64,000 nt of DNA from Microbotryum violaceum (GCA_001244265.2 CDLV01000007.1:434001-498000); one strand, 5' to 3'; positions 10,495 through 61,386 are shown, counted from the first letter of the stretch. The notes: generated by a model not told the origin, from the letters alone. Numbers and translations are program-made.

Positions 10495-10599
10495 TGCCCG
10501 CTGAGAGGATCGAACTCTCGACCTCCAGATTTCCCCCCAACCGGGAGTCACAGCTTAATACTATGAGACTAGCGTCATAACCAACTAGACCAAGCAGGC
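10495..10599 (-). tRNA. tRNA-Met(CAT), elongator type, 31-nt intron (10531-10561)
   Basis: Minus strand folds into a cloverleaf: acceptor GCCTGCT/AGCGGGC-A, A box TGGTCTAGTTGG, anticodon loop CT-CAT-A, T arm GAGAG-TTCGATC-CTCTC. T-rich Pol III terminator at 10481-10491. Confidence 0.95.
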
Positions 10600-10675
10600 C
10601 TTGATACGTGTCATCGGGGCGGGTTGTGTCATTACATTTTTGTGAGCATATCTGCTTGTTTCGCAGCTGCCAGGC

Positions 10676-10744
10676 CTTCACTTCACCTCACTTCACTTCA
10701 CCTCACCTCACTTCACTTCACTTCACTTCACTTCACTTCACTTC
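10676..10744 (+). repeat. (CTTCA/CCTCA)n pentanucleotide leader of family A element
   Basis: About 14 tandem units visible directly. Confidence 0.95.
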
Positions 10745-10800
10745 GAAATCGCCCTACCGCAGTCTTCGATACTCGAGTTAACAAGTGATACACCGACAAG

Positions 10801-13076
10801 ATGTCTACAGGAGACCCTGGGTCCCCACCGCCGGCACCGCCACCACCGGTGTCCGCGACCAGCGTCCAGCCACCCCGCGACCAGATCCCGATAAGCTCGA
10901 AGAAGACGCAAGCCACGGGCCCCGCCACCGCCGCACCCAACTATGCCGCCGCTGCGAGTCAGGCGACTCAGTCACCTGAACAACAGCAACAACAACAACA
11001 GCGTGCCAAGGCTCTGGGCAGCCTCCTACAAGCCATGGGTGCTGTACCCGGAAACCGCATGGATCGTTGGGTCCAGGCCATCTACTTCGCCGAACTCTAC
11101 CCCGTCGCCACCGCCACATCGCTGAAATTCTCGGCCTTGAACGCGAACCGGTCTGTCGAGAACATCTTTGATTACGCCCTTGAAGTGACTCTGTCTCACC
11201 AGAGCGCCTCGCGAGCGTCTCATGCCGACAAGACCGATCTCGTGGCCTGCGTCACGAGGCTGTTATCGCCGATCTCTCCTATCTGCTTTGAGCCTGGAGT
11301 TCCTCTGCCGGACCACCTTGCAGCCTATCGACCACAGATCCTAGGCGTACAACATTCATCAATCCTGCGTAATGGGGCGGCTCACCATCGCGTTACGGTT
11401 GGGTTCGTCACCGGCGAGGCCCGTGACGCTGCGCTTACGACGCCCCCTGCTCTCACTTGGCGATCGGCGAAGGCCCGCTTCGCGAAATCTCACAGGTTCC
11501 ACCATAACATGGTCGAGCTTCGAATCAACGTCGGTGTTCAAGGAGTGCCTTCCATGGATGTCATCATCAAATCGTTCCAATTACTAGTGCAGGACTTGTC
11601 AGGCAAGGGACATTCGTGCCAACTTGTGCAGGTTCTGCGCATTATCAGCGTGGACAACGCCTCGGCCTTTGCCCACGTTGCCGGAGACTACTCAGCTTTC
11701 CTACACTTCGATGACGACTCCCTGTTCAAACGCCCTAACACGACCTTGAAAGAGATCCTACCTTCGAGAATCGGCCTTCCCACTCGAGGCATCCCGGTCA
11801 CCGCCCTTCGCCATGACTATGAGAAGGAGGCGGCTTGCGGTAGGTGCCACTTCGTTGGTCACGTGGGAACCTGCGGACTGGATCAGGAGAGCAAGCGAAA
11901 GGAGGCTCACAACGGCAACGGCAACGGCAACACCAACGCCAACAAGAACACCATCACCAACGACACCAACATTGCGGAGGCCGAGGCCCCCATTCCTGTG
12001 CCGGTTGTTAACAGGATCGCATCACAGAATCGCTTCGCCGGGCTCGAGGTTGAAGAGGGACAGGAGGAAGCGGTAACTGGCCAGAGCGGACAGGGGCCAG
12101 AGGAATCGGGGGAGGAGGACGCTGGTGATAAGGCGGATGACGAGGACTCGGAGGACTCGGAGATGGAATCAGAGGCGACCGTGAAAACGGAGGCCATCAT
12201 ACTTAAGAGCGAGGACGAGTCGGTTTTAGAGGACTGCGGAGGATCCGATGGAGAGGTGATTGATGAGGATGAGGTGATGGCGGATGGAAGGGGCGAAACA
12301 GAAGGCAAGGTGGCGACGGAGATGGAGGAAAGGGAGGTGGCGACGGAGATGGAGGAAGAGGAGGTGGCGACGGAGGTGGACGATGTGGACGAGGCAGGGG
12401 GAGCGACGAAAGCGGAGAACGCGGAAGCGACGGACTTAGGGGAGACGAACAGGCTGGGCAATGACGACGACAGCGACGCAACAGCAACCGCCGCCACCGC
12501 TTCCCGCGAATCGACACCCCACGAACCAACCCCACCTTTGTCACCCGAAACTCTTGCCAAGTCGCTTCGCGAGGGGGAGGAGTGGGACAGGATCAGAGCT
12601 AACTGGGTTGAGCAGGCACGACTCGAGCGGGACCAAAGCATCGAGAGGAGGCTCGACGCTGAAACCCCTTTGGTGCGTCACAACTTTGCCACGTGGGATG
12701 AGGACGGTGAGATACGTTCCATCAATATCAGGGGGACCGCTTCGAAGTTCAAAAAGCCGGTAATGAAGAGGTCGCAGACTGCGGCGGACCTCAGTGACCC
12801 GAGTGACGAACCGACCGACGCCAAGCGAGTGATCATCAAAGGGAAGAGCCGCGTCGTTGTCAAGGATGGAACAGAGGGGCGGAGGGTGACGAGGTCGATG
12901 TCAGCGGCGGCGGCGATGCCGGTTGGCGTGACGAAAGTGGACCGAGGGAAAGCAAAGGGGTAGCCGAGGAGAAAAGATGGTCCGACCACGAGCCCGAGGA
13001 CGATGTCCTGCCCGCCCTCCCCCTCTTTGAGGACGTCACCACCGCCAAGAGCGCTTCGACCTCAACTACCCATTAA
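10801..13076 (+). CDS. LINE family A ORF1 (gag-like nucleic-acid-binding protein)
   Basis: Pro-rich N-terminus (GDPGSPPP), knuckle [13 protein letters not shown], long acidic tail. As assembled it stops at 12963; adding one G to the G-run at 12957-12960 extends it to TAA 13074-13076. Confidence 0.8.
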
Positions 13077-16000
13077 TGATTAAGCACACCATCATCACCT
13101 GGAACGTGAGGAGGGGCATGGGGGTCCCGGAGAAACGACGTGACATTTACAACTACCTATCCCTTTTCAAAGCATCGGCCATTCTCATACAAGAGCACTT
13201 CATCAGACCGCACCTCTGGCAACTCATCAAGGACGAGTACGAGGGCAAGCTCTTCATCAACCAACATTGTCTGACTCTAATTCCGGCTGACTCCCCCCTG
13301 ATCGACGCCGAGCTCTTGCGCACCCACTCGGCACTCGACGGCCGGCTCCTCGTCACGTCCTTTCGTCTGCGGGGCGACATCAAAATTCTAGAAATCAACA
13401 ACGTTTACGCGCCCGTTGACCCAAAGCAACGAGCGAAATTCTTTGACAAACTCTTATTTCACAAAACACAGAAATCCCACCTCCGACTCCTTGGCGGTGA
13501 TCTCAACGACTGCCCGCGCCCAGAAGTCGATCGGCGGAACCAAAGTCGGCGCGGCCACCACTGGCCAATCCTGATCGGCAAGCTCGACTCGGCCTACACG
13601 GACTGCATCCGCTACAAACACCCCATCACCCCATCCTTCACTCGCCTAATCCCAATCGCAAGCGACCCAACTCCTTCTCCCGGCTTGACTACTTTCTCCT
13701 GCAACGGACACACCAAAAAAGACTCGATCAGGCCTCGACGATCTACGACTATCCCAAGGAGCTTTCCGATCACCGACCGGTCTTGATTGTGCTGGCTCTC
13801 TCAGACGATCCTGATGCGACCCTCCCACAGCTCAGCCTACCTACCACATCAAACCAACTACATCGAATCAACACCACAACCTTTAAGACGGTGGAATTCC
13901 AGCGGATGATGGAAGGATGGTTGGAAGGGGCAAGCGGGGAGGAACCGGTGGGGGAGCTCGAGGTCATTCTGAAGGCGTGCAGGGATAGGGGTGGGGAGAT
14001 GGCGAGGAGGTTGCATCGGGAGCGGACGGAACGGATGGAGTATTTGGTGGGGAGGGTGCAGGATCTGGAGGCGATACCGGAATGGGGGAGGCGGAAACGG
14101 CAGAATGGACAAGGACGTCCGAGGAACTCAAGCGGGCGGTCGAGGAGCGCGCGCGCCTACTCCGGATCCGAGCCCACGTACCCGAGATCGCCTCCGAGGA
14201 ACGACTGTCGCGGCCGGTCCACGCCAAGCTCGCGGCGCGAAACTCGGACTCCAAGATCACAGCACTGCGCTTGAGCAACGGAGAGCTAACGCATGACATT
14301 GATGTCGCTCTTGACCACACGCAGGCGCATTTCCAGCGCCTCTACCACATCGAGCCTCGTGACCCGGACCGCGTCGACCGACTTCGGGACGATTTCCTCG
14401 CGCCGATCAGGGCGGCGCGGACTTGCGACGACCCGCGCTCGGATCCTCTCTTTCTGCGCCGACTCTCGGAATCCAGATCGACTTACTCCAGCGACCAATC
14501 ACCGAGGACGAGGTCGTGGCCGCGATCGGGACGACGCACCCGGGGCGATCGCCGGGACCGTCGGGCGTGCCCTACGAACTCTACCAGACCGCACCCAAGG
14601 CGTGGGCCAAGGTGCTGACCAAGGCCTACAACGCGATGATAGAGCGAGGCTCACTCTCTCCCAAGCAGGGCCAAGGACTCGTGCGCCTCATCTTCAAGCG
14701 ACACAAGAAGAATGCTGATCGCGCCGAACTTTCGGCGTACCGGCCGATCACCCTGCGCGAGTGCGATTACAAGATCTTTACCAAGGTCTATGTCGCCCGT
14801 TTGAACCAGATTCTACCGATCTCCTCCCGCCGCAGCAGCACGGATTCGTCAAGGACCGCCGATCGGCTGACGCTGCACTACACCTTCGTCTCCTGATCGA
14901 GGAAGTTGGCGCGCGCAGGACCGAGTTCCCCGCGGCCGCACTCTTATCTCTTGACCAATCGTCCGCCTACGACCTCGTCGAGCATGACTGGATCTTTGCC
15001 ATCTTTGACGCTCTGGGCGCTCCTGCCACCTTTCTTCGCGTGCTGAGGATGCTCTACTCGGGTGACTCGACCTCGGCCCGCTACATCATCAATGGGTTCT
15101 TGACGGCGCCGGTACGACTGACGTGTGGGCTCGGCCAAGGGGACCCGGCGTCGTCGTCGGTCTGGGACATCGTGTTTCAGCCGTTTCTGGATGCTCTACA
15201 CCGTCGAAACATCGCGCTGAATCTCTCCATACCTGCACTTCATCCGTACCCACAGAGCCGCGCCATTACATCGCTTGCTTTTGCCGATGACGTTGTCGTC
15301 GCCGTCGCGGGCTTGGGGTCACTCAACTTGCTCGATGACCTGGCGCTCGACTGGAGGCATGCAACGAATGGCCGGCTCAACACGGACAAGACGGTCGTCC
15401 TACCGATCGGACGCCGCTGGGACCCGGGGCAACGCCCGCTCGTCGTCAAGGCCGCAGGCGAGTCGCTCGAGTGGATCGGCCTCCCCTTCGACCCGAGCGG
15501 CGACACCGAACTCGCCTACGCGAATCTCATCGAACGCCTCGAGGCGACGCTGGAAGGGGTTCAGCATCGCTGGCTCACACACCACACCCGTGCCTTTTAC
15601 GTCAATCGGTACGCCATCCCCAAGATCCTGCACTTCCTTGCAGCCGACATCCCGCCGCCCGAAGTCGTCAAGAAGCTCGATGACATGCTCGTCGATTTCG
15701 TCCGTGGGGGCAAGGGCAGGACCAGCTACGGCAGAGATATCGTGTTCACAGCCAAGCTCAAGGGGGACTCGGGTGATCAGGATGCAGGACGTCGTGGACG
15801 CGGTTGCGGCACGGATCTGGGACGTTCTTCTCGGCGGTTCGGGCGCGATCTGGCAAGGACTTGCGCGCGTGGCACTCCAGCGAGCTCAGTCCGACCTCGA
15901 CCTGGCCACCGATCTCTGGCCACATCCATCCACTCCCATCCCCAGCGACCTCCATCCCCGATGGCGAGCAGCATTGGGGGTTCCGAAACAGCAAGACGCG

Positions 16001-17169
16001 CAGGTCAACCCGAGGACCTTGACCACCGCGAACCTGCTCGCGCTTCCCACCTTGCTCGGCAGCCTCCACACCCCCATCAGAGGGAGACAGACCATCGACG
16101 CGGTTCATATACCTGACTACCTTCGTCTCCAGGGCTACCCGAAGGTGGCGGATCTCTACCGGCGCGAGTTGTATGCGGGTGGGGGGTTTCACCTTTGGAC
16201 GCCGCCGGCGGATGTGCTCGGCGACAACAGCGAGTACGATCGACGCGGGCTCCCGCAGCGACTGGCAATCGCGGCCTGGTACCGGTTCACTGTCGATCGA
16301 CACAAGAACACGCCCTTGGCGGTGGCGGTGGCGGCAGGACGGCTCAACGTGCCTCCCCGGATCGGCACCAGCGCACCGCTCGAGGCGATTATCCCCAAGC
16401 CCGTGGCCCGCTTCGCAATGGAGCAGCGCCTTCCGGACCCGGTGCTTCCACAGCAGGCGAGCCAGTACAAGCTGCTGAACATGGCTCGACCGTACACCAT
16501 CCGTCGCATCCGCCGGGTCCTGAACGCGAAGGCCTTTACCAACACGCTCGGGCTCAAGGGACCACCGCAGCCGGACGACCTCAGGAGCTTTTGGAAGGCG
16601 GTCAACTCGAAGGCACTGACGGCGAGGGAGAGGGAAGTTTGGTTCAAGCTGATTCTCCGCTTCACCCCGACGCGCAAGCTGCAACACCAACAGAATCACG
16701 ACACTTCTCCCGCGTGCCTCGTCTGCGAGGCGCCGGTGGACGACACCGACCACTACTTTTTCGACTGCGTTGACTCTGGGAACGTTTGGATCGCGGCAAG
16801 GAGCGTGCTCTGCGACGCACTGGGGCTCGACACGATCGACAACACGCATTACACGGCTGTTCAACGCATGTTCGGACTTCCGAAGCTCAAGGCCAGTCTA
16901 CGCGATCAAGAAGGAGCGGGAGGACGATCGAAATATTCACCGGGCTGGTCTTGGAGATGATCAGCAGCGGGAGGTGGGGGATGCAGAAGTGGGGGACGAG
17001 GACGGAGGGTGTTGGGAGAAGGAGGATCATCTTGGAGGAGAGGTTGAAGCTGAGGGCGGGAGGAGCTTGGGGAGGAGAGGGCAGTAGAGGCTGGGTTCGA
17101 CTTTCCCCCACCACCACCACACACACACACCAAACTCTCGTGACATCATTTTCTCCTACTGTACACTAA
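13076..17169 (+). CDS. LINE family A ORF2 (AP endonuclease - reverse transcriptase - CCHC finger), several frameshifts as assembled
   Basis: ITWNVR, LIQEH, NVYAP, GGDLND, SRLDY and SDHRPV (APE); SPGPSG, YRPITL, QHGF, GLGQGDP and AFADD (RT); CLVC...HYFFDC. Confidence 0.9.
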
Positions 17170-17742
17170 ATAGATCGCTTTCATCTTTCATTTGTTACAG
17201 GTTCACCGTTGCGGATCATGGACCATCTCGCGATTTGGCGTCGACTCGGTGTGGCTCGCGCTCTTCGGCTTCGGGGTTCTGAGTCAAGGGAGGGATCAGC
17301 GGACACAGGCAGAAAGTCGGCTTTGAGGGGCCAGGGACTGCCGATGGGGAGGTTTTGAGGGACCTTCACCGCGTCTTGTTGTGACTGAGCAGAGACTTGG
17401 AGCGTCGAGGGTCGTGGTGGTTGCGCAGTCGTGCTCTTGTCTTCGTCTCGACCGAGTGGGAAGTGGCTGTGGGGTGGGCCTTCTGTCGTTAGTACATTTC
17501 TTTTCTTTCTTTTTTTCTCTTCATCTCTCTTTCTCTCTCTCATTAGTCTCCTGGGGGGGAGCAACCGCTTGGCTAGGGCATTTGAATCCGAATCTCGGAT
17601 TGGTGGACTTGGCTCGTTTCTCGCACTTTTGCGGGCGGTTTGTGTTATCATCGTAGTCTTCCATCTAGTTTTTTTCCGTAGGCCAAAACAGGGGGAACAG
17701 GAACTGGGGGCAATATGATGAACGTTTTCTACAAAAAAAAAA

Positions 17743-19577
17743 GTCACAGTTCCAACCATCAAGTCCGAACTCCTTACGCTCCCGAATTGCTCTCGCTTCC
17801 GCCTCGCCTCCCTTCACTCTATGCTGAAGGTGCCAAGCACGCATATGACGATGCGGACGCAGTGGCGAAGTTTGCGCAGATCGCGGACCTGTACTGGAGG
17901 GACGAAGGGAAGGGCTGGGCTCTGGTTGGTCATCGACGCGGGTTCTGGCAGCACTCTAAGGAACCCGCCCTACAGCACGAGCACGTGTGGTCGCGCGTGG
18001 GTCAGTTGCTCAAGGCGAAAGCCTTGCTGCCCAAGACCGCGTTGCGACCTGCTCGGATACCTCTCAAGGAGGCTCCCCGTCCTCGGTGCTTCAACTTCTT
18101 TGGGCTCACCCGACCGTTCACTATTCGCAAGCTTCGTCGGCTTGTGAACGTGGTTCGGTTCCCAGGGAGGGAGGATCGTGTCAAGCGTTTCCGTGATGGG
18201 ACTTCTCAGAGCGATAGGAAGCGCTTCTGGAGATGGCTTCATGACCGGTTTGCGTCTGCTGTGGAGCAGGACACCCACTGGCGGCTCATGTACGACGTGA
18301 CGCCGACGCGCAAGAGGCAGCATACTCAGGGTCATGCCTCTTCGCCGACGTGTCTGTTCTGCGGCAACGATGCAGCGGTCATCGAGACGGTGTCGCACTA
18401 CTTTTTCGAGTGCGCGTACTCGACCAGCTTCTGGGGTGGGGTGCTTCGCATTCTGTTCGACAAGCTGGGCATCGAGGATACCGACGTCGATCCGTCGACG
18501 TTCACTCCGGAGCAGCTGACTATGGGGCTCCCCCTTTTGCGGGGTCGTGGGAGAACGACCTCGAGATGGATGTGGGTTCGGCTGGCCTGCGCGATCGGCT
18601 TCCAGCGGCTGCACCTGCTCCGCTGGCGCGTTCATCAGCGGTTCGAGAAGGACCGCGTCGTGGCCCCTCCCTCGATCCCCAGTGCACTCAGAGCGTTCGA
18701 GCGAGATTTTCTCTCTCGAGCGGGTTTTGTGCCTGGGGCTCGAGATTGGGAGGTGTGATGACCGACGGTTTTTTGTTCTTGGGTGGATCGGCAAGCCAGG
18801 TCGATTGTCTTTGCGTTGGAGGCTTTGTGAAGTTTTTCCCTCTCCTTTCCCCCCTTTTTTTCCCTTCCCTTCCTCTTCTCGTTCCTGTTGCTCGGTTGTT
18901 GACTACGCTTCAGCCACTTTTCCTTTTACTCCTAAGCCGTGTGTTGGATTCCGTTGAATGGTTCGTTCGTTCGCGTTGGTCAAGATCTACGGCATGGCTC
19001 GGGAAGGAAGGTCGCTCGTTTCTGGTCAATATCCTCGCGTCAAGGCGAGGCTCGTTTCGTTGTTCTGGATCGCTTTTCTCTCGGCCCCGACGGCTCAACA
19101 GCCAGCACTCGAGATTCAGCCAAGGGAGGACATCAGGCGCGGTCGGGGTGACGAGTAGCTGGGGCTTGGCTGCGGCCTGTTAGTCCCTGGGGACCTCTAC
19201 CTCCGGCTTCGACCCCCTACCTTGGCCCCTCGGGTGTGTTCCCCTCCTCTCTGTCTTAGTATTCCTGGTTCTCCGTATCCCCAGTTGTGACTTTCTGTAT
19301 ACTCTCCCCCTTCTTTCTCTAGGCGCTCTTGCCTGGTTTTCGAGTATCTTTGCTCCCGCTCTTGGGACGTGAAGCGGCAGCAGTACTCACCGCCCGTTGG
19401 AGTCCGCGTTAGGTGCTCGGCGGGTTTTGATCTGCGCAGCGCTCTTTGCGCGCAGGGGTTTGACTTTCACCCAACTGCTTGCCGTCGTTGCTTTATAACC
19501 TCCTTTAGCCTTTTTGTAGCGGTCCCAGCCAACCCGAAGGATTGCAATTTATGAGCCCCAGTCAAAAAAAAAAAAAA
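17743..19577 (+). mobile_element. 5'-truncated family B copy; its first 12 bp lie at 10663-10674, split off by element A
   Basis: Near-identical to 24839-26812; ends in A14 at 19564-19577. Confidence 0.93.
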
Positions 19578-19582
19578 CGCAT

Positions 19583-20026
19583 GGGAGGGATCAGCGGACA
19601 CAGGCAGAAAGTCGGCTTTGAGGGGCCAGGGACTGCCGATGGGGGAGGTTTTGAGGGACCTTCACCGCGTCTTGTTGTGACTGAGCAGAGACTTGGAGCG
19701 TCGAGGGTCGTGGTGGTTGCGCAGTCGTGCTCTTGTCTTCGTCTCGACCGAGTGGGAAGTGGCTGTGGGGTGGGCCTTCTGTCGTTAGTACATTTCTTTT
19801 CTTTCTTTTTCTCTTCATCTCTCTTTCTCTCTCTCATTAGTCTCCGGGGGGGAGCAACCGCTTGGCTAGGGCATTTGAATCCGAATCTCGGATTGGTGGA
19901 CTTGGCTCGTTTCTCGCACTTTTGCGGGCGGTTTGTGTTATCATCGTAGTCTTCCATCTAGTTTTTCCGTAGGCCAAAACAGGGGGAACAGGAACTGGGG
20001 CAATATGATGAACGTTTTCTACCAAA

Positions 20027-20030
<4 letters not shown>
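19583..20030 (+). mobile_element. 5'-truncated family A copy (3' UTR only)
   Basis: Near-identical to about 17288-17732; ends in an A7 tail. Confidence 0.92.

Positions 20031-20086
<56 letters not shown>
20031..20086 (+). repeat. (CA)28 leader of family B element
   Basis: Perfect dinucleotide repeat. Confidence 0.97.
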
Positions 20087-20088
<2 letters not shown>

Positions 20089-20161
20089 GTGTGTACCGTC
20101 GTGTAGTGTGTACAGTCGCCCACCAACCGCTTCAAGAGCTACAGGACGACGACAAGAAGTG

Positions 20162-21865
20162 ATGCCGGATCCGCCCGGCCCACCCCCGCACCCGCCCAAC
20201 GCTCCGTGGGCTGGTGACGTGTTGAGAGATGAATCACTCAACACGGAAACCCGTGAGACGGTCACTGGAGGAACCGTTAATCCTCCAGCCTGGTCTGCCC
20301 AGGCTTCTCAGGCTCGATTGGACCATGAGAAGTCGATGCAGAAGGCTTTCAAAGCCCTTGGCATCGTACCATCCTCCAAGTCGACCCGCCGGCTGATGGT
20401 ACTGTTGCATGACCCTTCCAGCCCGCCTTCGCAGGCGCCGGCTCTCGCACGAGCTGCTCAAAGGGCGGTACGAAACGACGCGATGCCGGCCTCCAACGTG
20501 ATCCGAGTCATCATGGATGGTACTGGGTCCCCAAGAGGCCCTGTACAGATTGCGCTGCGTAAGCACTTTGGGCTGGCCGAGACGCCATTCATGTTCGCGC
20601 GGCCCGAGGGCGCCGAGCTTGACCCCGAGGTCGAGAAGCTCTTCTCGAAATGTGTGAAGCTGAACCCGATCGTGACGAAGGCAACGAAGAGGTTCCCGAT
20701 TGCTCGTCATATGTACGAGCTCGTGTTCGAATCCGACCAGGCCTGTCTCGAAGCCGCTGCAGCGGGTCCATTCCCCTATCACGGAAAAGAGATGGTCACC
20801 GAGCTCCCGAGTGTTTCCCCCCTAAACCACATCGTCCAGGTGCGATTCACCTTACCCTCCTCTTCCAGCGCGATTCCCGCTTCCGTGCTCCGAAAATCTC
20901 TCGACGCTGCTCTCACTTCCTCCTTCGGCCACGCTGGTTGCACGCAAGGGTATACCCTCATGCAATTACAGCGGGGCCTCGCGGTCGATCCGAACGGTGA
21001 CCCGATGGCCATGACCGAAGACGGGTTCCACTGCGCGTACCTTCGCTTACATGCTGATCTTTTCCAAGGCTCCACCGAGACGCAGAAGGCTGCGCTCAAC
21101 GCCGCCTTGCCACAAGAGATCGAGATCCTGGGCGCCAAGTACGGCTTGCGACACGAATTTGAGACGCACTACTGCGCCGTGTGCGATCGCGCCGGACACC
21201 AGTGGGGGGCTTGCAGGAAGCCGGTTTCGACTCCGGCCACCGCCGCCCCTGTTCCGGGGGCCTCGACTTCGACTTCGACTTCGACTTCGACCACCGGCTT
21301 CCGAGTTGCCGGAAAGAATGGGAAGCACGGTGGGCCTGCCGCATTGAACTCTCGTGCCTCTGGCACGAACATGATCCAGCTGGGACCTCGTGCTAACCCC
21401 GCAGGTGCAGCGACCGGCAACAAGGACGATGCGAACGACGGCGACGGTGACGACGACGACGACGACGGCGAATCGGTCGCTTCGACCGAACCGGAGGGCG
21501 GCGACACTGGGAAAGAGATGTTGACCCGTGCGACCACGGGCCCAACAAAGGAGACGCAGACGACGACAGCGGCGCCCGTTTCGACCCCGACCTCTCCTTC
21601 GCCTTCTACTTCTGCTCCGGCATCGCCTATGTCCGGTGGCACGTCGGAATCATCGGCAACCGCGACGACCTCGATAGCCTCGACGAGTCCTCGACGCCTT
21701 CGTTCGAGCTCGGCACCCGGCAACCGACGTGTCACCCGGGCGGGATCCGCCATGATCCACGGTGCATCAGGGGGTGACGACTCAGGGGGCAACAGTTCAG
21801 GGGGTCACAGGTCCGAGATGACCGAATTCGAGGGGGCGGCGCTGATCCAATTTATTCATGATTGA
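20162..21865 (+). CDS. LINE family B ORF1
   Basis: MPDPPGPPP start, CX2CX4HX4C knuckle CAVCDRAGHQWGAC, disordered tail. Its stop overlaps the ORF2 start (ATGATTGA). Confidence 0.85.
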   Translation: MPDPPGPPPHPPNAPWAGDVLRDESLNTETRETVTGGTVNPPAWSAQASQARLDHEKSMQKAFKALGIVPSSKSTRRLMVLLHDPSSPPSQAPALARAAQRAVRNDAMPASNVIRVIMDGTGSPRGPVQIALRKHFGLAETPFMFARPEGAELDPEVEKLFSKCVKLNPIVTKATKRFPIARHMYELVFESDQACLEAAAAGPFPYHGKEMVTELPSVSPLNHIVQVRFTLPSSSSAIPASVLRKSLDAALTSSFGHAGCTQGYTLMQLQRGLAVDPNGDPMAMTEDGFHCAYLRLHADLFQGSTETQKAALNAALPQEIEILGAKYGLRHEFETHYCAVCDRAGHQWGACRKPVSTPATAAPVPGASTSTSTSTSTTGFRVAGKNGKHGGPAALNSRASGTNMIQLGPRANPAGAATGNKDDANDGDGDDDDDDGESVASTEPEGGDTGKEMLTRATTGPTKETQTTTAAPVSTPTSPSPSTSAPASPMSGGTSESSATATTSIASTSPRRLRSSSAPGNRRVTRAGSAMIHGASGGDDSGGNSSGGHRSEMTEFEGAALIQFIHD

Positions 21866-24800
21866 GTCCCTCACCGTGTTGACGTTCAACGTCCGATCGA
21901 TCAAGAACGCAGTCAACCAAGTCAAAATCATCCGCTATCTCAAAACCCTTCGGCCGGCCCCTGCGGCCATTCTCCTGCAAGAGCACCACCTCAGCTACAA
22001 CGCGTTGCGCGAAGGCTTCGAGATTGCTTGGCCAGGAGCTTGTATTCGTTTCGCACCTCATGTCCTTACCCTTATACCCGATGGCTCACCTCTGGCGGGC
22101 CGCCTCCTCTCCTCTACCCCGGTCGTGTTTGCAGAAGCCCCTCAATTCGACGGTCGGATCCTGCGCTCGGTGTTTCGTCTTGAGGAGCTCGATATCGAGA
22201 TCATCAACATGTATGCGCCGGTCAAGGGGGAAGAACGTCGCGACTTCTACGGGCTCCTGCACTTCACCGCTCCGGGGCCCAAGACTCTTCGGATCTTGGC
22301 CGGCGATCTCAATGATTGTCCGGATGTATCGGTCGACCGAGTGGCCATCACCGATCGCGCTTGGACTCCTGTATCGCACTGGCAGACCTTGCTGTCAAAG
22401 ATCGCATTCAACCCACTCGACACGATCCGACAACTCCATCCCATCACCCCGGCATTCACTCGCCCTCACTACCTTGGTAGGGGGACAAACGAGAAATCTG
22501 CTCGTGGTCGCGGATCGATTATATCCTTGTCCAGCGCAGTTGGGCAAACCGGTTGTTGAGCGCTTCCACACTTTTCGATGCGCCCTGCTCGGACCACAGA
22601 CCTGTAGTTGCGACTTTCGCATTGCCTACATCGAACGCTGATGCCGAACCCCCCTTTCTCTTCCCTCTACGAGCGATTTCATTTCGAGGCTCAACCCAAC
22701 GGTCTTTGACGATCAAGACTTTGTCGCATCGATTCCCGGGTCGTCGACGAGGTCTATCGAAGGCTGGAGGGGACCGTTCCGCTCGGCGACGTCTATGACG
22801 CCGCTCTGCGGGCGGTTGCAGTCGCTGGCCATGCACGATACCGCTCGACTCGTGCCGACATGCGCCGACTGCGGGCCGAGAACCAATCCGTCATGGAGGC
22901 TTTGGAGGCACGCGGTGAGCACATGAATGAGGCCGAGCGCGATGCGTATGCTTTTGCCAAGTCGCGGTTGGACCAGTTGGCGGTAAAGGAGGCACAGTGG
23001 CTGCGCATTCGTGCGCATGTGCCGTCAGTCGACTCGAGGAAGGTCAATCGGCAAGCATTCGCACGCGTCTCAACCGCCGGAGTCGCCAGACGAGCATCGT
23101 CTCGCTGGAGGATGTGGATGGCACCGAGACCGTTGACATGCAGGAGGCGCTGGGCATTGCTTCACGGCACGCACAGTCGCTCTTCACGCCGGACCCAGCT
23201 CGTGGCGACCCGACGAACCCACGTCGGTCCCTGCTCGACCCCATTCGCGCGGCGAAATGCTACGATGACGACCGCTCGGACCCTACGTTCGGTCGTCGGC
23301 TGCCTCGTCAAGCGAGAGTGGCGCTTGACGAGCCCTTCACCCTCCTCGAGGTTGAAGCGGCGTTGAAGAAGACGGATTCGGGGCGATCACCGGGGCCCTC
23401 GGGCATTCCGTACGAGCTCTTCAAGGCGCTGCCAACCTACTTTGCTCCCAAGCTGTTGGATTTGTTCAACTCGATTTGGGAGGGGGGTAAAATGACGGCG
23501 TCCTTGGCAGAGGGGCTGGTGCGGCTTTTGCCCAAGAACAAACCGGGGGCCAATCTGAAATCACTGGGGGCATATCGACCGATCACACTGCGCGAGACAA
23601 CCTACAAGGTCCTCAGCAAGGTCTTGGTGGCGCGACTCAATGGGGTGCTCGGCGAGCTTTTGCCGCCGGCGCAACACGGGTTCATGCCATCAAGACGTTC
23701 AGCAGACGCGGGAAGTCATCTCACTCTCCTTCTCGAAAAACTCAAGTCGCTAGGCACTGAAGTTTTCCCCGAGGGCGCCCTCTTGTCCTTGGATCAGCAG
23801 AGCGCGTACGATCGGGTCGATCACGCATGGATCTTCGACGTCTTCGAGGCCTTTGGCTTTGGTGAGCGTTTCATTTCCCTGCTGCGCGCTCTGTACGATC
23901 CCGAGACTCTGGGGGTGCGCTACCTCATCAATGGGTTCCCCACGGAGTTGGTGCGGTTGCTGTGTGGTCTCGGTCAGGGGGATCCCCTCTCGTTCCCGGT
24001 TTGGAACATCACGTTCCAGCCCTTCCTCGACGCCCTCGTTCGGCGCGGGATCGCGCTCGACCTGCAGAAGGTGTGGCCAGGGGGGCCGCGTGCGCAGCTT
24101 ACGCATCTGGCGTTTGCCGACGATGCTGTGGTGGTGGTGGAGTCACCGGCGGCATTGTCGAAGCTGGAAACGCTGTCGCAGACGTGGTACGAGGCAACCA
24201 ACGGGAAGACCAACACGGACAAGACGCTGGTGCTACCACTCGGACCGAACTGGCTTCGGGACGAGACTGCGCAGGCGCTGCCAACGGTGCAGGAGGGGGA
24301 GAGCTTCAAGTGGTGCGGCTATGCCTTCTTTCGCCACGGTGACTCGAAACTGTTTTGGACCCATGTTCTTGACAGGATCAAGGCCAAGACCCGCGCCGCT
24401 GGAGACCGGACACTTTCGCCGAGTGGGAAGGTCTTCTATGCCAACGCTCACATCATCTCGACGGTCCTCCACGTGCTGTCCTTCGACATACCGCCTCAAT
24501 GGTTCATTAAGGCGGCGGAGACAGCACTTACGGATTTTGTCTGGGGAGGAGCAGGGCGAAATACCGTCGCTCGCGATTTCGTGTTCCAGGCTCGGGAGGA
24601 CGGTGGCTTGGGCTTGATTTCAATCGGCGACATCGTTCATTCGGTGGCGCTTCGATTTTGGGATGCTGTGGCGGGCTCGAACGAGGCGATCTGGGCGCCC
24701 CTAGCTCGCGAGAGCTGGAGGTCCCTCGTCGCTGCGACCCGCGATTTCAGTCCGTGGGGGTTCTTCAGCAGCACGGCTCGGGTCGAGAAGCTGTATCGCG

Positions 24801-25855
24801 ACTCGACGCGCTGGGGGGCAGTCGTTGCAGCTGCCAGGGTCACAGTTCCAACCATCAAGTCCGAACTCCTTACGCTCCCCGAATTGCTCTCGCTTCCGTC
24901 TCGCCTCCTTTCACTCTATGCTGAAGGTGCCAAGCACGCATATGACGATGCGGACGCAGTGGCGAAGTTTGCGCAGATCGCGGACCTGTATTGGAGGGAC
25001 GAAGGGAAGGGCTGGGCTCTGGTTGGTCATCGACGCGGGTTCTGGCAGCATTCTAAGGAACCCGCCCTACAGCACGAGCACGTGTGGTCGCGCGTGGGTC
25101 AGTTGCTCAAGGCGAAAGCCTTGCTGCCCAAGACCGCGTTGCGACCTGCTCGGATACCTCTCAAGGAGGCACCCCGTCCTCGGTGCTTCAACTTCTTTGG
25201 GCTCACCCGACCGTTCACTATTCGCAAGCTTCGTCGGCTTGTGAACGTGGTTCGGTTCCCAGGGAGGGAGGATCGTGTCAAGCGTTTCCGTGATGGGACT
25301 TCTCAGAGCGATAGGAAGCGCTTCTGGAGATGGCTTCATGACCGGTTTGCGTCTGCTGTGGAGCAGGACACCCACTGGCGGCTCATGTACGACGTGACGC
25401 CGACGCGCAAGAGGCAGCATACTCAGGGTCATGCCTCTTCGCCGACGTGTCTGTTCTGCGGCAACGATGTAGCGGTCATCGAGACGGTGTCGCACTACTT
25501 CTTCGAGTGCGCGTACTCGACCAGCTTCTGGGGTGGGGTGCTTCGCATTCTGTTCGACAAGCTGGGCATCGAGGATACCGACGTCGATCCGTCGACGTTC
25601 ACTCCGGAGCAGCTGACTATGGGGCTCCCCCTTTTGCGGGGTCGTGGGAGAACGACCTCGAAATGGATGTGGGTTCGGCTGGCCTGCGCGATCGGCTTCC
25701 AGCGGCTGCACCTGCTCCGCTGGCGCGTTCATCAGCGGTTCGAGCTGGACAAGGTCGTGGCCCCTCCCTCGCTCCCCAGTGCACTCAGAGCGTTCGAGCG
25801 AGATTTTCTCTCTCGAGCGGGTTTTGTGCCTGGGGCTCGAGATTGGGAGGTGTGA
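21858..25855 (+). CDS. LINE family B ORF2 (APE - RT - CCHC), frameshifts in the 5' third as assembled
   Basis: LTFNVR, LLQEH, NMYAP, AGDLND, SRIDY and [36 protein letters not shown] and GGLGL; CLFC...HYFFEC. Confidence 0.92.
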
Positions 25856-26836
25856 TGACCGAGTTAAGTCCTTCCTTCCCATTTTCCTCCCCTCCTTTCC
25901 TCCCTTCTTTTTCGGAGGTCGACTCCTCTTTTAGAAGCTGACTGTCTTGAAACTTGTTGCGCAGTGGAAGGCTGCGCACCTCTCTCTCTCTCTCTCTCTA
26001 CTTTGCGCAGTAGCGGTTTTCGTTCTTGGATGGATCGGCAAGCCAGGTCGATTGTCTTTGCGTTGGAGGCTTTGTGAAGTTTTTCCCTCTCCTTTCCCCC
26101 CTTTTTCCCTTCCCTTCCTCTTCTCGTTCCTGTTGCTCGGTTGTTGACTACGCTTCAGCCACTTCTCCTTTTACTCCTAAGCCGTGTGTTGGATTCCGTT
26201 GAATGGTTCGTTCGTTCGCGTTAGTCAAGATCTACGGCATGGCTCGGGAAGGAAGGTCGCTCGTTTCTGGTCAATATCCTCGCGTCAAGGCGAGGCTCGT
26301 TTCGTTGTACTGGATGGCTTTTATCTCGGCCCCGACGGCTCAACAGCCAGCACTCGAGATTTAGCCAAGGGAGGACATCAGGCGCTGTCGGGGTGACGAG
26401 TAGCTGGGGCTTGGCTGCGGCCTGTTAGTCCCTGGGGACCTCTACCTCCGGCTTCGACCCCCTCCCTTGGCCCCTCGGGTGTGTTCCCCTCCTCTCTGTC
26501 TTAGTATTCCTGGTTCTCCGTATCCCCAGTCGTGACTTTCTGTATACTCTCCCCCTTCTTTCTCTAGGCGCTCTTGCCTGGTTTTCGAGTATCTTTGCTC
26601 CCGCTCTTGGGACGTGAAGCGGCAGCAGTACTCACCGCCCGTTGGAGTCCGCGTTAGGTGCTCGGCGGGTTTTGATCTGCGCAGCGCTCTTTGCGCGCAG
26701 GGGTTTGACTTTCACCCAACTGCTTGCCGTCGTTGCTTTATAACCTCTTTTAGCTCTTTTTGTAGCGGTCCCCTGCCAGCCAACCCGAAGGATTGAAATT
26801 TATGAGCCCCGGTAAACAAAAACAAAAAACACGCGA

Positions 26837-26900
26837 CCTGTCCCAGCCATCTTCAACGATTGCAGTCTATGAGCCCCGGTAAAACAAAACAAAACACAAA
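26837..26900 (+). mobile_element. Degenerate 3'-tip remnant of family B
   Basis: cctgtcccagcc...gattgcagtctatgagccccggt plus (AAAAC)n resembles the family B 3' end (gtcccagcc...gattgcaatttatgagcccc). Confidence 0.75.
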
Positions 26901-27285
26901 GAATGCCGGTCGGAGTTGGCAACTTTGGATCCATCATCGCTGGCTGATGGATACTGTCATTGGATCCGAATTCCTGCGTGCTCGGGGCATGCCACAGATG
27001 GGTATACACATGATTTATATATCACGTCCCTCTGTAGACTCGTGCGATAGTCAGGATCATAACTCTTTAGTAAGCTGTGGCCCGTATGGTCACTGGAGCA
27101 AGTAACCGCAGTGCTCAGTGGCTCTCCACTCCTGCGCTCCGGCCCAGTCCGAGGAATTTGCAGCGAAAGCGCCTGGCGAAGGCCGCCAGTTCACGTGACT
27201 TCCGGGTCACGCCGTGAGCGATCTCGAGAAGCGTCGACTCGCCAACTGAGGCTTCTGCAGCAGCACAACTCGACCCTGAGACGCA

Positions 27286-28969
27286 ATGGTACCAACCGAG
27301 CTTTACCGGCTGGTGATGAACCACCTCTTCAAATCTCAAGGACATCACTCTATTCGTAATGTTCTCACCACATCATCGCCGCACCGAGCCTTGCATTCGA
27401 CGTGCAGGAGAGGAACAACGGCCCCATCGCAGGCAACGACGCCGTCTTCCTCAGCCCCTCTTGAGCGACCCTTGTTGATCCTGGGCCTCGAGTCATCGGC
27501 CGACGATACCTGTGCAGCCGTCATCTCCTCCGACTCTGCATTGACGCAACCGCGCCTCTTGTCCAACATCGTTATCCGCCAGCCCAGTCACGAGCGGTTC
27601 GGCGGGATCCACCCACTTCATGCCCAACATGCCCATGCCCGCAACATGCCTACAGCGATCCAGCGAGCGCTCAAGGAAGCACTTATTACACTGGAGCATT
27701 TGGATGGCATTGCGTTCACAAGGGGTCCAGGGATGATGGGCTGTTTGAGCGTCGCTTGTCACTCGGCCAAAGCGCTCGGTGCTGCAACAGCCAAACCGTT
27801 GATTGGGGTGCATCATATGGTACGTCGCATTGGTACTGCTTGGCTCTCAGTAAAACTTCATCAGATTTATAAGCAAATATACTAAGCTTTGTCTTCGTCT
27901 ATCTTGCACAGCAAGCCCATGCTCTGACCCCTTTCTTGACCTCGGCGATCCCACCCAAATTCCCTTTCCTCACGCTCCTACTTTCCGGTGGGCACACACT
28001 TTTGTTGTTCGCGTCTTCTGAAACTGAGTTCAAGATTTTAGCAACCACGCATGACGAGTCGATCGGGTACGTCCCACACCAAGTCTAAGGATGTCCAGTG
28101 AAAAGCGATGGGAGTCTGATCGACATTTTTTTTTTCTCGGCTTCTCACAGAGCTTCGTTCGATAAAGCTGCTCGAGACTTGGAGATCCCATGGTCCTTGG
28201 GCGCCGGGTCTCCCGGTGCCGCTCTAGAGGCTTTTGCATTCCCTCCCCGACCAAATCCAACAACATCAACAAGAACTGAACTGACGACGTCAACAGACCA
28301 AGATCTAGCCCCCCCTCCAGGTGTGGTGCCCCATTTCTCGCAGCCTTTTCCTCGCCAACTGGCCTTCTCCTTCTCCGGTGCTCGCTCGCAACTGGATCGC
28401 ATCATCGCCGACGATCCGAGTATGGAAGAAGGGAGGAAGAGGCTCTTGGCCAGGTCGTTCATGCAAGCCACGGTCAAACAAGTCGAAGACAAGGTCGCCT
28501 TGGCTCTGGGCATGAAAGAGCCCCGGGGGATGCGCGACGTGAAGCACTTGGTCGTGAGCGGCGGAGTCGCGAGTAATTCGTATCTCCGGACACGGTCAGT
28601 CAACTTCGCACAGAAGATGTTGTGCAGTCTGTGTTCTGATAAGTCTTTTCTTGGGACCTTGACAGGTTGCGAGAGAAACTGGACGATTTGGATCGCCAAG
28701 ATATCGAACTCGTTTTTCCGCCCCCTAACTTATGCACGGGTCAGTCCGGACTCGATGCCATAAACCTTGTTTTTCTGCTTCAGACGCTGATGCAACCCCG
28801 AAAAACTCCACTGCGGTGTCGTTGGCTTCACACTCCAGACAACGCGGCCATGATCGCCAACGTTGGCCTGTCCCGCTTACGGCGTGGCCGACTCGATCCG
28901 TTGGAAGTCATGCCGATCGCAAAGTGGAGCATTGAGGAGTGCGAGAAGGACTTCGAAGACAAGCATTAG
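27286..28969 (+). CDS. QRI7: Mitochondrial tRNA t6A threonylcarbamoyltransferase (Kae1/Qri7/OSGEPL1), multi-exon
   Basis: LGLESSADDT, FGGIHP, TRGPG, GVHHMQAHAL, LLSGGHT, FSFSG, VSGGVASN and CTDNAAMIA motifs; N-terminus resembles a presequence. Confidence 0.93.
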
Positions 28970-29095
28970 GGACTGTCGTTATGCAAAGCAGATGTCTCGA
29001 TCGAATAACAAATGCAACGCGTGATCCTGCGGCGGGGAACCATTCGACCGTTTCCGTTTTATTCTTGATTCTACAACAGAGCAGTAGGCGCTGGA

Positions 29096-35468: not shown

Positions 35469-35479
35469 GTACAATTCTT

Positions 35480-35838
35480 CTGTAGAAGCCGCTGGGTATC
35501 GGGGATTACTGTTCATCATATCGCCCCCAATTCCTGTTTCTCCTGAATGGCCTACGGAAAAACTAGATGAAAGTAAATCTAGATGGAAGTGGACGATGAG
35601 AACACAAACCGCCCGCAAAGTGCAAGATACGGGCCGGTGTCCACCAATCCAATAACGGTATTAGAAAGCGGCTGCCCCCCCCCCCCCCCCCCCCCCCCCC
35701 TTCAGAGGAGGTGTAATGAAGCGGCTGCCCCCCCCCTTCAGAGGAGGTGTAATGAGAGAGAGAGAGAACAGAAATTGACGTACTAACGACAGGAGGCCTA
35801 TCCCGCACCCACTTCCCGGCTCGGTCGAGACAAAGACC
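35480..35838 (-). mobile_element. Degenerate family A 3' UTR remnant
   Basis: Diverged match to about 17445-17730 (ctcgaccgag..gggaagtgg, ggattggtggac, gcgggcggtttgtgtt, tttccgtaggcc); contains a poly-C expansion and an internal duplication. Confidence 0.8.
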
Positions 35839-35900
35839 TTTTTTTTTATTTAAGAAAACTGGGGCACATAAATTGCAATCCTTCCGGTTGGCTGGGACAG
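35839..35900 (-). mobile_element. Family B 3'-tip remnant
   Basis: cctgtcccagccaaccggaaggattgcaatttatgtgccccag followed by an interrupted A tail. Confidence 0.85.
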
Positions 35901-35914
35901 GAGAGCGAGGCCGC

Positions 35915-37011
35915 TTTTTTTTTTGTAGAAAACGTTCATCATATTGCCCCCAGTTCTTCTTCCCCCTGTTTTGGCCTACGGAAAAACTAGATGGAAGACT
36001 ACGATGATAACACAAACCGTCCGCAAAAGTGCGACAAACGAGCCAAGTCCACCAATCCGAGATTCGGATTCAAATGCCCTAGCCAAGCGGTTGCTCCCCC
36101 CCAGGAGACTAATGAGAGAGAGAAAGAGAGACGAAGAGAAAAAGAAAGAAAAGAAATGTACTAACGACAGAAGGCCCACCCCACAGCCACTTCCCACTCG
36201 GTCGAGACGAAGACAAGAGCACGACTGCGCAACCACCACGACCCTCGACGCTCCAAGTCTCTGCTCAGTCACAACAAGACGCGGTGAAGGTCCCTCAAAA
36301 CCTCCCCCATCGGCAGTTCCTGGCCCTCAAAGCCGACTTTCTGCCTGTGTCCGCTGATCCCTCCCTTGACTCAGAACCCCGAAGCCGAAGAGCGCGAGCC
36401 ACACCGAGTCGACGCCAAATCGCGAGATGGTCCATGATCCGCAACGATGAACCTGTAACAAATGAAAGATGAAAGCGATCTATTTAGTGTACAGTAGGAG
36501 AAAATGATGTCACGAGAATTTGGTGTGTGTGTGTGTGTAGTGGTGGGGGGGAAAGTCGAACCCAGCCTCTACTGCCCTCTCCTCCCCAAGCTCCTCCCGC
36601 CCTCAGCTTCAACCTCTCCTCCAAGCTCCTCCCGCCCTCAGCTTCAACCTCTCCTCCAAGATGATCCTCCTCCTCCCAACACCCTCCATCCTCGTCCCCC
36701 ACTTCTGCATCCCCCACCTCCCGCTGCTGATCATCTCCAAGACCAGCCCGGTGAATATTTCGATCGTCCTCCCGCTCCTTCTTGATCGCGTAGACTGGCC
36801 TTGAGCTTCGGAAGTCCGAACATGCGTTGAACAGCCGTGTAATGCGTGTTGTCGATCGTGTCGAGCCCCATTGCGTCGCAGAGCACGCTCCTTGCCGCGA
36901 TCCAAACGTTCCCAGAGTCAACGCAGTCGAAAAAGTAGTGGTCGGTGTCGTCCACCGGCGCTTCGCAGACGAGGCACGCGGGAGAAGTGTCGTGATTCTG
37001 TTGGTGTTGCA
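35915..37011 (-). mobile_element. 5'-truncated family A copy
   Basis: Near-identical to 16680-17742; A10 tail at 35915-35924. Confidence 0.93.
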
Positions 37012-38211
37012 TTTTTTTTTTTTTTTGACTGGGGCTCATAAATTGCAATCCTTCGGGTTGGCTGGGACCGCTACAAAAAGAGCTAAAGGAGGTTATAAAG
37101 CAACGACGGCAAGCAGTTGGGTGAAAGTCAAACCCCTGCGCGCAAAGAGCGCTGCGCAGATCAAAACTCGCCGAGCACCTAACGCGGACTCCAACGGGCG
37201 GTGAGTACTGCTGCCGCTTCACGTCCAAGAGCGGGAGCAAAGATACTCGAAAACCAGGCAAGAGCGCCCGAGGGGCCAAGGTAGGGGGTCGAAGCCGGAG
37301 GTAGAGGTCCCCAGGGACTAACAGGCCGCAGCCAAGCCCCAGCTACTCGTCACCCTGACAGCGCCTGATGTCCTCCCTTGGCTGAATCTCGAGTGCTGGC
37401 TGTTGAGCCGTCGGGGCCGAGATAAAAGCGATCCAGTACAACGAAACGAGCCTCGCCTTGACGCGAGGATATTGACCAGAAACGAGCGACCTTCCTTCCC
37501 GTGCCATGCCGTAGATCTTGACCAACGCGAACGAACGAACCATTCAACGGAATCCAACACACGGCTTAGGAGTAAAAGGAGAAGTGGCTGAAGCGTAGTC
37601 AACAACCGAGCAACAGGAACGAGAAGAGGAAGGGAAGGGAAAAAAGGGGGGAAAGGAGAGGGAAAAACTTCACAAAGCCTCCAACGCAAAGACAATCGAC
37701 CTGGCTTGCCGATCCACCCAAGAACAAAAAACCGTCGGTCATCACACCTCCCAATCTCGAGCCCCAGGCACAAAACCCGCTCGAGAGAGAAAATCTCGCT
37801 CGAACGCTCTGAGTGCACTGGGGAGCGAGGGAGGGGCCACGACCTTGTCCAGCTCGAACCGCTGATGAACGCGCCAGCGGAGCAGGTGCAGCCGCTGGAA
37901 GCCGATCGCGCAGGCCAGCCGAACCCACATCCATTTCGAGGTCGTTCTCCCACGACCCCGCAAAAGGGGGAGCCCCATAGTCAGCTGCTCCGGAGTGAAC
38001 GTCGACGGATCGACGTCGGTATCCTCGATGCCCAGCTTGTCGAACAGAATGCGAAGCACCCCACCCCAGAAGCTGGTCGAGTACGCGCACTCGAAGAAGT
38101 AGTGCGACACCGTCTCGATGACCGCTACATCGTTGCCGCAGAACAGACACGTCGGCGAAGAGGCATGACCCTGAGTATGCTGCCTCTTGCGCGTCGGCGT
38201 CACGTCGTACA
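37012..38211 (-). mobile_element. 5'-truncated family B copy lacking both 3' UTR intron-like segments
   Basis: Near-identical to 25386-26812 minus two segments; A15 tail at 37012-37026. Confidence 0.93.
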
Positions 38212-38281
38212 ACCCCAGCGGTTGAAAAAGAAACCCTAAAGTCTATATACTACCCACTTCCCTCTAGTAGTATTGAACCCG

Positions 38282-38372
38282 GTCTTCGTAGCTCAGCTGG
38301 TTAGAGCGTCCGACTGTTAGCTCATGCCGCACATATATCGGGAGGTCGACAGTTCAATCCTGTCCGAGGACG
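38282..38372 (+). tRNA. tRNA-Asn(GTT), 17-nt intron (38320-38336)
   Basis: Acceptor GTCTTCG/CGAGGAC-G, D arm GCTC/GAGC, anticodon arm TCCGA-CT-GTT-A...A-TCGGG, T arm GACAG-TTCAATC-CTGTC. T8 terminator at 38376-38383; TATATA at 38244-38249. Confidence 0.96.

Positions 38373-61355: not shown

Positions 61356-61386
<31 letters not shown>

Follow-up and report, generated by a model that had tools for sequence, protein, structure and literature searches.

The stretch analysed here is 64,000 nucleotides (nt) of DNA from Microbotryum violaceum (CDLV01000007.1:434001-498000, assembly GCA_001244265.2). It is referred to below as the window, and all positions are counted from its first letter unless stated otherwise. 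The window consists of gene-dense, GC-rich (53-65%) fungal DNA, and its sequence assigns the host to Microbotryum, a genus of anther-smut fungi within the basidiomycetes. It contains two transfer RNA (tRNA) genes and ten copies or remnants of long interspersed nuclear elements (LINEs), which represent two families, here called A and B. The LINEs are not dispersed: they form two stacks of five, one at each tRNA gene.

Exactly two tRNA genes are recognised in the window by Rfam, and both are also called by ARAGORN and bear introns. The tRNA-Met gene (anticodon CAT) occupies 10495-10599 on the minus strand (RF00005, 46.2 bits; ARAGORN with introns allowed), with its 5' end at 10599 and a T-run terminator downstream on the minus strand. 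The tRNA-Asn gene (anticodon GTT) lies at 38282-38372 on the plus strand (Rfam, 53.8 bits) and is followed by a T-run. A looser Rfam scan of 10300-38600 found no further tRNA or tRNA fragment inside the stacks. ARAGORN also proposed a 'tRNA-Pro' with a 1012-nt intron at 23499-24603, within the second open reading frame (ORF2) of a B copy; it was rejected as a false positive, there being no Rfam match at that place. Each tRNA gene is separated from its stack by a short spacer. The Met spacer (10600-10662, 63 nt from the tRNA 5' end to the first LINE base) is the presumed footprint region of TFIIIB and RNA polymerase III (Pol III). In the Asn spacer (38212-38281, 70 nt), some 32-40 nt upstream of the gene, there is a TATA-like 'tatata'. 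No motif is common to the two spacers: their best local alignment score is 14 against a shuffle mean of 13.6, and 233 of 500 shuffles reach 14.

Copies were delimited by self-BLAST, by tblastn with the A and B ORFs, by Pfam and by direct reading of the junctions. The Met stack, in which every copy is on the plus strand, is headed by a 5'-truncated B copy that has been split by a full-length A copy (10675-17742; Pfam, and alignment to L001, a metagenomic copy described below). The first 12 nt of the truncated B copy (10663-10674) are identical to 24827-24838 of the full-length B copy further out. Its remainder (17743-19577; self-BLAST) ends in poly(A) and matches the full-length copy at 98.5% identity over 24839-25862 and at 96.7% over 26014-26834 (self-BLAST). 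The 12 nt thus correspond to the B stretch directly before the point at which the truncated copy resumes (17743 being equivalent to 24839), an agreement with a chance probability of 6e-8. Family A was inserted bluntly between B positions 24838 and 24839, with neither duplication nor loss of target DNA. As the A copy lies 12 nt inside the truncated B copy, it must have inserted after B, and its target was not a poly(A) tail. The nesting therefore means that the A insertion preserved the spacing from the tRNA gene even though the DNA it entered was no longer native flank but LINE sequence.

Beyond the split copy, the Met stack continues with 5 unassigned nt (19578-19582), a 5'-truncated A copy consisting of 3' untranslated region (UTR) only and ending in poly(A) (19583-20030, 98% identical to 17285-17740), a (CA)n tract (20031-20086) and the full-length B copy (20087-26834, or from about 20031 with the (CA)n; Pfam and tblastn). 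It closes distally with a tiny remnant of a B 3' end (26836-26898, from alignment of B 3' ends). Mismatches of the full-length B copy cluster in its last 95 nt or so (26738-26834), which resemble the tiny B tails. This segment looks like an older B fragment; taken together with contigs of a related organism, it suggests that the full-length copy was joined to it by priming on homologous DNA or by recombination. Given this fused 3' end and the absence of the copy from contigs of a related organism (see below), the full-length B copy by itself lends no support to a fixed distance.

In the Asn stack all copies are on the minus strand. Its head is a 5'-truncated B copy with a poly(A) end that starts at B position 25386 (38211-37012; 100% identical over 477 nt to 25386-25862), abutting a 5'-truncated A copy with a poly(A) end that starts at A position 16680 (37011-35915; 97.5-98.5% identical to 16680-17743). 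Further from the tRNA gene lie a tiny B 3'-end remnant (35914-35838; 79% identity, from sequence and alignment), a diverged A-like 3' remnant (35837 to about 35505; 69% to the A 3' end and 70% to L001) and, most distally, a diverged B-like 3' remnant (about 35500-35255; 82% and 77% to the B 3' UTR in two comparisons). Identity to other copies is 95-100% for the two members next to the tRNA gene and 69%, 77% and 79% for the three distal ones. Judged by this divergence, young copies are nearest the tRNA gene and old ones distal. Such an order is predicted by repeated insertion at a fixed site and is the opposite of what insertion into tails would produce.

The distance from the mature tRNA 5' end to the LINE junction is 63 nt for the truncated B copy and 75 nt for the full-length A copy at tRNA-Met, and 70 nt at tRNA-Asn. 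Two further values obtained outside the window, 56-65 nt for another junction at tRNA-Met and 62 nt inferred from an extension of L001, fall in the same narrow upstream band, all five figures deriving from three tRNA loci only (two seen directly and one inferred). The element's 5' end is directed toward the tRNA gene in ten of ten copies, and the same polarity is found in both external cases. Tandems have formed at tRNA genes that were already occupied, as seen in the two stacks and in the A copy that interrupts an older B copy at its head. A tblastn search with the ORFs of both families detected no A- or B-like coding sequence in the rest of the 64 kb. By our own estimate, the probability that both stack heads fall in a 20-nt band upstream of the tRNA genes in the observed orientation is about 5e-8 for any one window, which rises to about 0.01 once 250,000 windows are taken into account. 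Target-site duplications are absent from both insertions that can be resolved (A in the truncated B copy, and the L001 block in a Copia gag gene), each of which is blunt. Nor is there a single common target sequence, the targets being two unrelated spacers, B coding sequence and Copia gag. We also considered whether the tRNA genes had been brought in by 5' transduction with the LINEs, and rejected this because the copies touching both spacers are 5'-truncated; these junctions were accordingly formed at integration.

These results agree closely with the original prediction, which was made from the sequence alone. It had described ten LINE copies or remnants in two stacks at two tRNA genes, gaps of 63-66, 75 and 70 nt, a uniform orientation with 5' ends toward the tRNA, flanks without common sequence, and intact tRNA genes and proximal spacers. 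Self-BLAST, tblastn and junction reading recovered the ten copies and their orientation, the first gap is now fixed at 63 nt, the similarity of the spacers is at shuffle level, and Rfam, ARAGORN and the sequence itself concur on the integrity of the genes and spacers.

A and B are related in their second ORF. Pfam analysis of the long frames between the tRNA genes identified Exo_endo_phos (PF03372), RVT_1 (PF00078) and zf-RVT (PF13966) in both families. These domains are arranged as an N-terminal apurinic/apyrimidinic endonuclease (APE), a reverse transcriptase (RT) and a C-terminal CCHC zinc finger, and no RNase H domain was found in either family by Pfam at E values up to 0.01. The RT regions of A and B are 48% identical. 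Among 82 ORF2 hits, homologues of 65-99% identity come exclusively from Microbotryum species, the next named relatives outside the genus are 'Transposon TX1' proteins of Chlorella at 30%, and no Dictyostelium protein appears in this word-limited search. There are also sister families at 38-43% identity. Among solved structures, an intact B-type ORF2 (P0003) is matched best by human LINE-1 (L1) ORF2p (E 1e-22), ahead of R2; intact annotated ORF2 proteins of Microbotryum are 1388-1395 amino acids long. By domain order, poly(A) ends and best Protein Data Bank (PDB) match, and by the names that sources give to outside hits, A and B are L1/Tx1-like LINEs of the APE type.

The full-length A copy measures 7068 nt. 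It starts with 'cc' and a (TTCAC)n repeat at 10677-10745, carries ORF1 at 10801-12963 with one CCHC knuckle and ORF2 in shifted frames (APE from 13031, RT from 14719, zf-RVT at about 16590-16790), and ends, after a 3' UTR, in poly(A) at 17742. In B, ORF1 spans 20162-21865, likewise with one CCHC knuckle, and ORF2 spans 21846-25855 in shifted frames (APE, RT, zf-RVT). The 3' UTR of the full-length B copy includes a variable segment of 151 nt at 25863-26013. This segment is CT-rich and missing from both 5'-truncated B copies, and variants of it occur in loose contig ends of three sequencing runs (X9, X14 and X19); it is a variable 3' UTR module of B. Simple repeats head the full-length copies, with (TTCAC)n in A in two species, differing in repeat number, and (CA)n in front of B. 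They may be transcribed 5' ends varying by slippage, or additions made at integration. TTCAC-like repeats also stand at the start of the A copy in L001, so (TTCAC)n is the length-variable 5' end of A itself. A 460-nt unit first taken for a separate element belongs to the A 3' UTR, since L001 aligns to 10722-17742 with its poly(A) at the same place.

Logan contigs of four coded runs were compared with positions 10300-28300 of the window. In these collapsed contigs an extra G relative to the window is found at 14083 and 16917 (all four runs), 22479 (three of four), 22737 and 23037 (all four). The frameshifts that break ORF2 in the full-length copies of the window are therefore private 1-nt deletions in G runs, and most copies in relatives keep ORF2 open. 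The k-mer depth of LINE contigs in X9 is 7-48 times that of single-copy flanks, which we read as multi-copy and not as a copy number.

One X9 contig (coded organism B, single-copy depth 28.7) contains the tRNA-Met gene and its spacer to 10655, then nine other letters, then family B from 18117. As assembled, a related strain or species lacks the A copy and has B joined at another point, 56-65 nt from this tRNA-Met gene. Contigs of X9 and X19 join an A 3' end directly to B position 26714 or 26738 and continue into the distal flank and the Kae1 gene, which means that organism B lacks the full-length B copy at the Met stack. Other contig joints lead from an A 3' end to a 5'-truncated B copy in the same orientation (19972 to 23939, and 17713 to 19469). 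Between X9 and the window there are 8 differences in about 320 nt at the tRNA-Met side (10344-10619) and 5 in 1563 nt distally (26738-28300); the two flanks of the Met stack may have different histories. Run X19 resembles an RNA library, one of its contigs skipping the GT..AG stretches 27818-27911 and 28065-28150 of the Kae1 gene. Its contigs cover family A and, more thinly, family B, which places the LINEs among RNA-derived contigs. Within A, three joints (11665-11761, 13697-13777 and 13697-13844) have CT..AC ends and look like introns of antisense transcripts.

A metagenome scan with the ORF2 alignment returned three loci, of which L002 and L003 are 23-25% identical and shorter than 2 kb and only L001 is close; a scan of viral contigs with the same alignment returned no relatives. 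L001 (12,388 nt) holds an A copy with an internal RT deletion and 77-85% nucleotide identity, its positions 2880-9022 aligning to 10722-17742 of the window up to a poly(A) end. Around the A copy, at L001 259-2781 and 9023-9364 on the minus strand, is a Copia-type long terminal repeat (LTR) element (gag, pre-integrase, rve, SH3) whose gag is split by A. The gag frame resumes across the insertion without duplication or loss. LINE and Copia domains also occur together in several annotated Microbotryum proteins, a hint that the two element types are often nested.

In L001, 98 extra nt precede the TTCAC repeats of A (repeats at L001 2877-2910). Read on the opposite strand, this extension comprises a 62-nt spacer followed by 36-38 nt that resemble the 5' half of a tRNA. 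The tRNA-like half has the 10-mer TTGGTCTAGT in common with tRNA-Met of the window, at the same tRNA positions 7-16, where about 0.009 such matches are expected by chance. On its sequence, the simplest reading of the extension would be 5' transduction from a progenitor that lay 62 nt before a third tRNA gene, head to head with it, followed by off-target insertion of the transduced copy.

The explanation that best accommodates the observed anatomy, junction positions, orientation, nesting order and polymorphism is that A and B represent a convergent, TRE5-like lineage of tRNA-homing LINEs in a fungus, with incomplete specificity, and we regard this as likely. Both families would integrate preferentially upstream of the tRNA gene, some 56-75 nt from the mature 5' end, with an element's 5' end turned toward the tRNA. 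Each new copy would land beside the tRNA gene and push earlier copies outward, giving a head-to-tail stack with the youngest copy proximal. Most likely, by analogy with Dictyostelium TRE5-A, an active tRNA gene is recognised by a protein of the element through the Pol III pre-initiation complex bound there (TFIIIB, TFIIIC or Pol III). The APE would then nick just outside the footprint of this complex, and target-primed reverse transcription (TPRT) would follow, yielding in both resolvable cases a blunt integration with neither duplication nor loss of the target. If so, tRNA targeting would be expected to be general across the genome.

Which protein provides the tether can be approached by comparing the two families. 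Their ORF1 proteins have one CCHC knuckle each as a common feature and show no other relationship (BLASTP E 3.5; hhalign probability 0.9%), and homologues of either were found only in Microbotryum. With ORF1 unrelated and ORF2 48% identical in the RT, the targeting determinant is more likely to reside in ORF2. If the tether is not in ORF2, the two ORF1 proteins must have converged on one partner; the sequence comparison weakly favours ORF2. A ORF1 has no Pfam match, and the ESM Atlas gave weak leads only (clusters of RNA-binding and zf-CCHC proteins, best score 0.91). An AlphaFold model of A ORF1, built on a 16-sequence alignment, has a mean predicted local distance difference test score (pLDDT) of 35.4, and its beta-alpha-beta pattern is not counted as evidence.

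Several observations weigh against homing to tRNA genes. The A copy in L001 interrupts a Copia gag ORF on a 12.4-kb contig without a tRNA gene, and it is thus an off-target insertion, accounting for one of one external copies with visible flanks. Infernal, run on L001 2779-2900 at E values up to 10, called no tRNA in the extension and gave only two chance-level matches; the tRNA-like half consequently rests on the common 10-mer and its position. The X9 joint is seen in a single contig, whose shorter arm has 30 letters, and a 7.5-kb deletion could explain it. Homology or recombination may have brought in the full-length B copy, possibly at least 0.5 kb from the tRNA gene. The seamless joints between poly(A) and 5' ends in the Asn stack could be template-switch chimeras, which may bring the number of independent events nearer to five than to ten. 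Finally, many ORF2 homologues of Microbotryum lie on short contigs with several LINE or Copia ORFs, which may be clusters of transposable elements, at tRNA genes or elsewhere. The claim of position- and orientation-specific targeting by APE-type LINEs in a basidiomycete is hence retained as a preference, reinforced by the nesting of A in B, the age order at tRNA-Asn, the X9 junction and the L001 extension; as a strict rule it does not hold, given that the sole flanked external copy lies away from a tRNA gene.

Some of these points would also suit a preference of LINEs for other LINEs, whereby new elements enter or adjoin existing ones at poly(A) tails or at 3' ends with homology, or are chimeras produced by template switching, and only the stack founders came to lie near a tRNA gene, by chance or tolerance. 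Elements do abut from poly(A) to 5' end without a spacer, the 3' end of the full-length B copy merges with an older B fragment while organism B contigs lack that copy, and contigs exist in which an A 3' end is followed by a 5'-truncated B copy in the same orientation (the joints 19972 to 23939 and 17713 to 19469). Insertion into LINEs or chimerism may well account for part of the seamless joints, cutting independent events to about five. As an account of the whole arrangement we nevertheless find it unlikely: the full-length A copy entered the truncated B copy near its head, at 12 nt, and not in its tail; tail insertion predicts the reverse of the Asn order, in which the youngest copies are nearest the tRNA; founders with equal orientation at 63-70 nt from two unrelated tRNA genes have a probability of about 5e-8; and X9 has another head junction at the same tRNA-Met gene. 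Also quite improbable is a scenario in which integration is random and selection and ectopic recombination act afterwards, so that copies survive only in harmless places of a gene-dense genome and arrays arise by recombination. The remainder of this compact window is filled with genes, the off-target L001 copy occupies another transposon and hence a harmless place too, and the X9 joint could reflect a deletion. Selection would not, however, yield a 20-nt band or one orientation in ten of ten copies, and it leaves unexplained why intergenic DNA elsewhere in the 64 kb has no A or B copies.

An explanation through DNA sequence, in which the APE reads a motif that happens to lie upstream of tRNA genes in the manner of Tx1- and R1-clade elements, is very improbable. 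It draws on the annotation of the nearest named relatives outside Microbotryum as Tx1-like and on the many target-specific families described for the Tx1 clade in the relevant passages of PMC4640811. Against it, the Met and Asn spacers are no more alike than shuffles, A cut unrelated targets (B coding sequence in the window and Copia gag in L001), and position relative to the tRNA gene is kept while the sequence changes. Since it is this position that is conserved and not the sequence, A and B are not sequence specialists of the Tx1 type.

Homing to tRNA genes, the reading preferred here, has its closest parallel in TRE5-A of Dictyostelium; the comparisons that follow draw on the portions of the cited papers that deal with element structure and integration. 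TRE5-A inserts 47 ± 3 (40-54) nt upstream of tRNA genes, just outside the TFIIIB footprint, and its ORF1p binds TFIIIB subunits (PMC5391098, PMC5911963, PMC5006619). It is always oriented with its 5' end toward that of the tRNA, builds tandems and has extra nt at the 5' junction (PMC5391098). A and B resemble TRE5-A, and also TRE5-B and TRE5-C, in having two ORFs, an ORF2 with APE, RT and zinc finger, and a poly(A) or oligo(A) tail (PMC5391098, PMC5006619, PMC5911963). They likewise have the narrow upstream band, the 5' end facing the tRNA, the tandems and the extra nt at 5' junctions, and, as in the TRE5 elements, ORF1 proteins are unrelated between sister families. Unlike TRE5-A, their host is a basidiomycete and not an amoebozoan, they lie 56-75 nt out (10-25 nt further), and both resolvable insertions are blunt, whereas TRE5-A makes target-site duplications of variable length. 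That A and B contact the Pol III machinery through their own proteins would follow by analogy with this system.

Independent acquisition of such behaviour has precedents. NLTR-B of Polysphondylium pallidum and NLTR-A of D. purpureum are non-LTR elements outside the TRE group that, like A and B, integrate upstream of tRNA genes and acquired this independently, NLTR-B at 39-64 nt (PMC5006619, PMC5911963). Unlike A and B, they carry an RNase H domain and their hosts are amoebozoans. Among fungi, Ty3 and Ty1 of yeast (also Tj1, Tyl3/Ylt1/Tyl6 and Tca8) are retroelements that home to Pol III genes via TFIIIB or Pol III subunits (PMC5911963). These differ from A and B in being LTR elements that use an integrase and not TPRT, with Ty3 inserting at the transcription start site and Ty1 periodically over about 1 kb.

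In domain order (APE, RT, CCHC) and poly(A) tail, A and B resemble human L1 and its ORF2p. Zorro is a fungal L1-like element of the L1/Tx1 group. L1 itself is unlike A and B in having a loose T-rich nick preference and target-site duplications, and the specialists of the Tx1 clade differ from them in recognising DNA sequence.

The sections of a 2018 review that treat target choice record tRNA homing by non-LTR elements in dictyostelids only and list fungal cases that are all LTR elements (Ty1-4, Tj1, Tyl3 and others); they also state that the target specificity of fungal LINEs has not been elucidated (PMC5911963). In its passages on repeats and tRNAs, the Microbotryum genome paper gives 392 LINE copies and 134 tRNAs and does not mention targeting (PMC4469406). 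No tRNA-targeted LINEs in fungi or in Microbotryum were described in the full-text literature searched, a body that excludes subscription papers, Repbase and Dfam notes and supplements, in keeping with the original prediction, which knew of no earlier description. We lean towards regarding A and B as the first fungal, and the first non-amoebozoan, non-LTR elements to read the position of the Pol III complex and not DNA sequence, comprising at least two families with the tether in ORF2, blunt integration and one orientation, and having arisen by convergence.

The remaining proteins encoded in the window are of the WD40/F-box, Kae1/TsaD, NPR2, CorA, CHORD, TAF6 and Hsp70 types. The Kae1/TsaD gene (Pfam TsaD at 27280-28763) and unique flanking DNA lie beyond the distal end of the Met stack. 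A Pfam NAD-GH frame at 60688-62325 on the plus strand is antisense to the Hsp70 gene (60751-62628, minus strand); we assign it to the known spurious family of antisense-Hsp70 frames and do not count it as a second gene.

If the proposed homing is true, A and B would be a third independent solution to finding a safe haven in the genome, after integrase-based homing and the TPRT-based homing of amoebozoans. A fungal case would open the question of how a TPRT machine measures distance and polarity from TFIIIB or Pol III, and the pair A and B, whose ORF1 proteins are unrelated, could serve as a natural experiment to tell an ORF1 tether from an ORF2 tether. The host is a yeast-like basidiomycete that is genetically tractable, and many of its relatives and strains have been sequenced. 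The finding would also bear on programmable LINE-based insertion tools, and on stacks of transposable elements at tRNA genes as a force shaping Microbotryum chromosomes.

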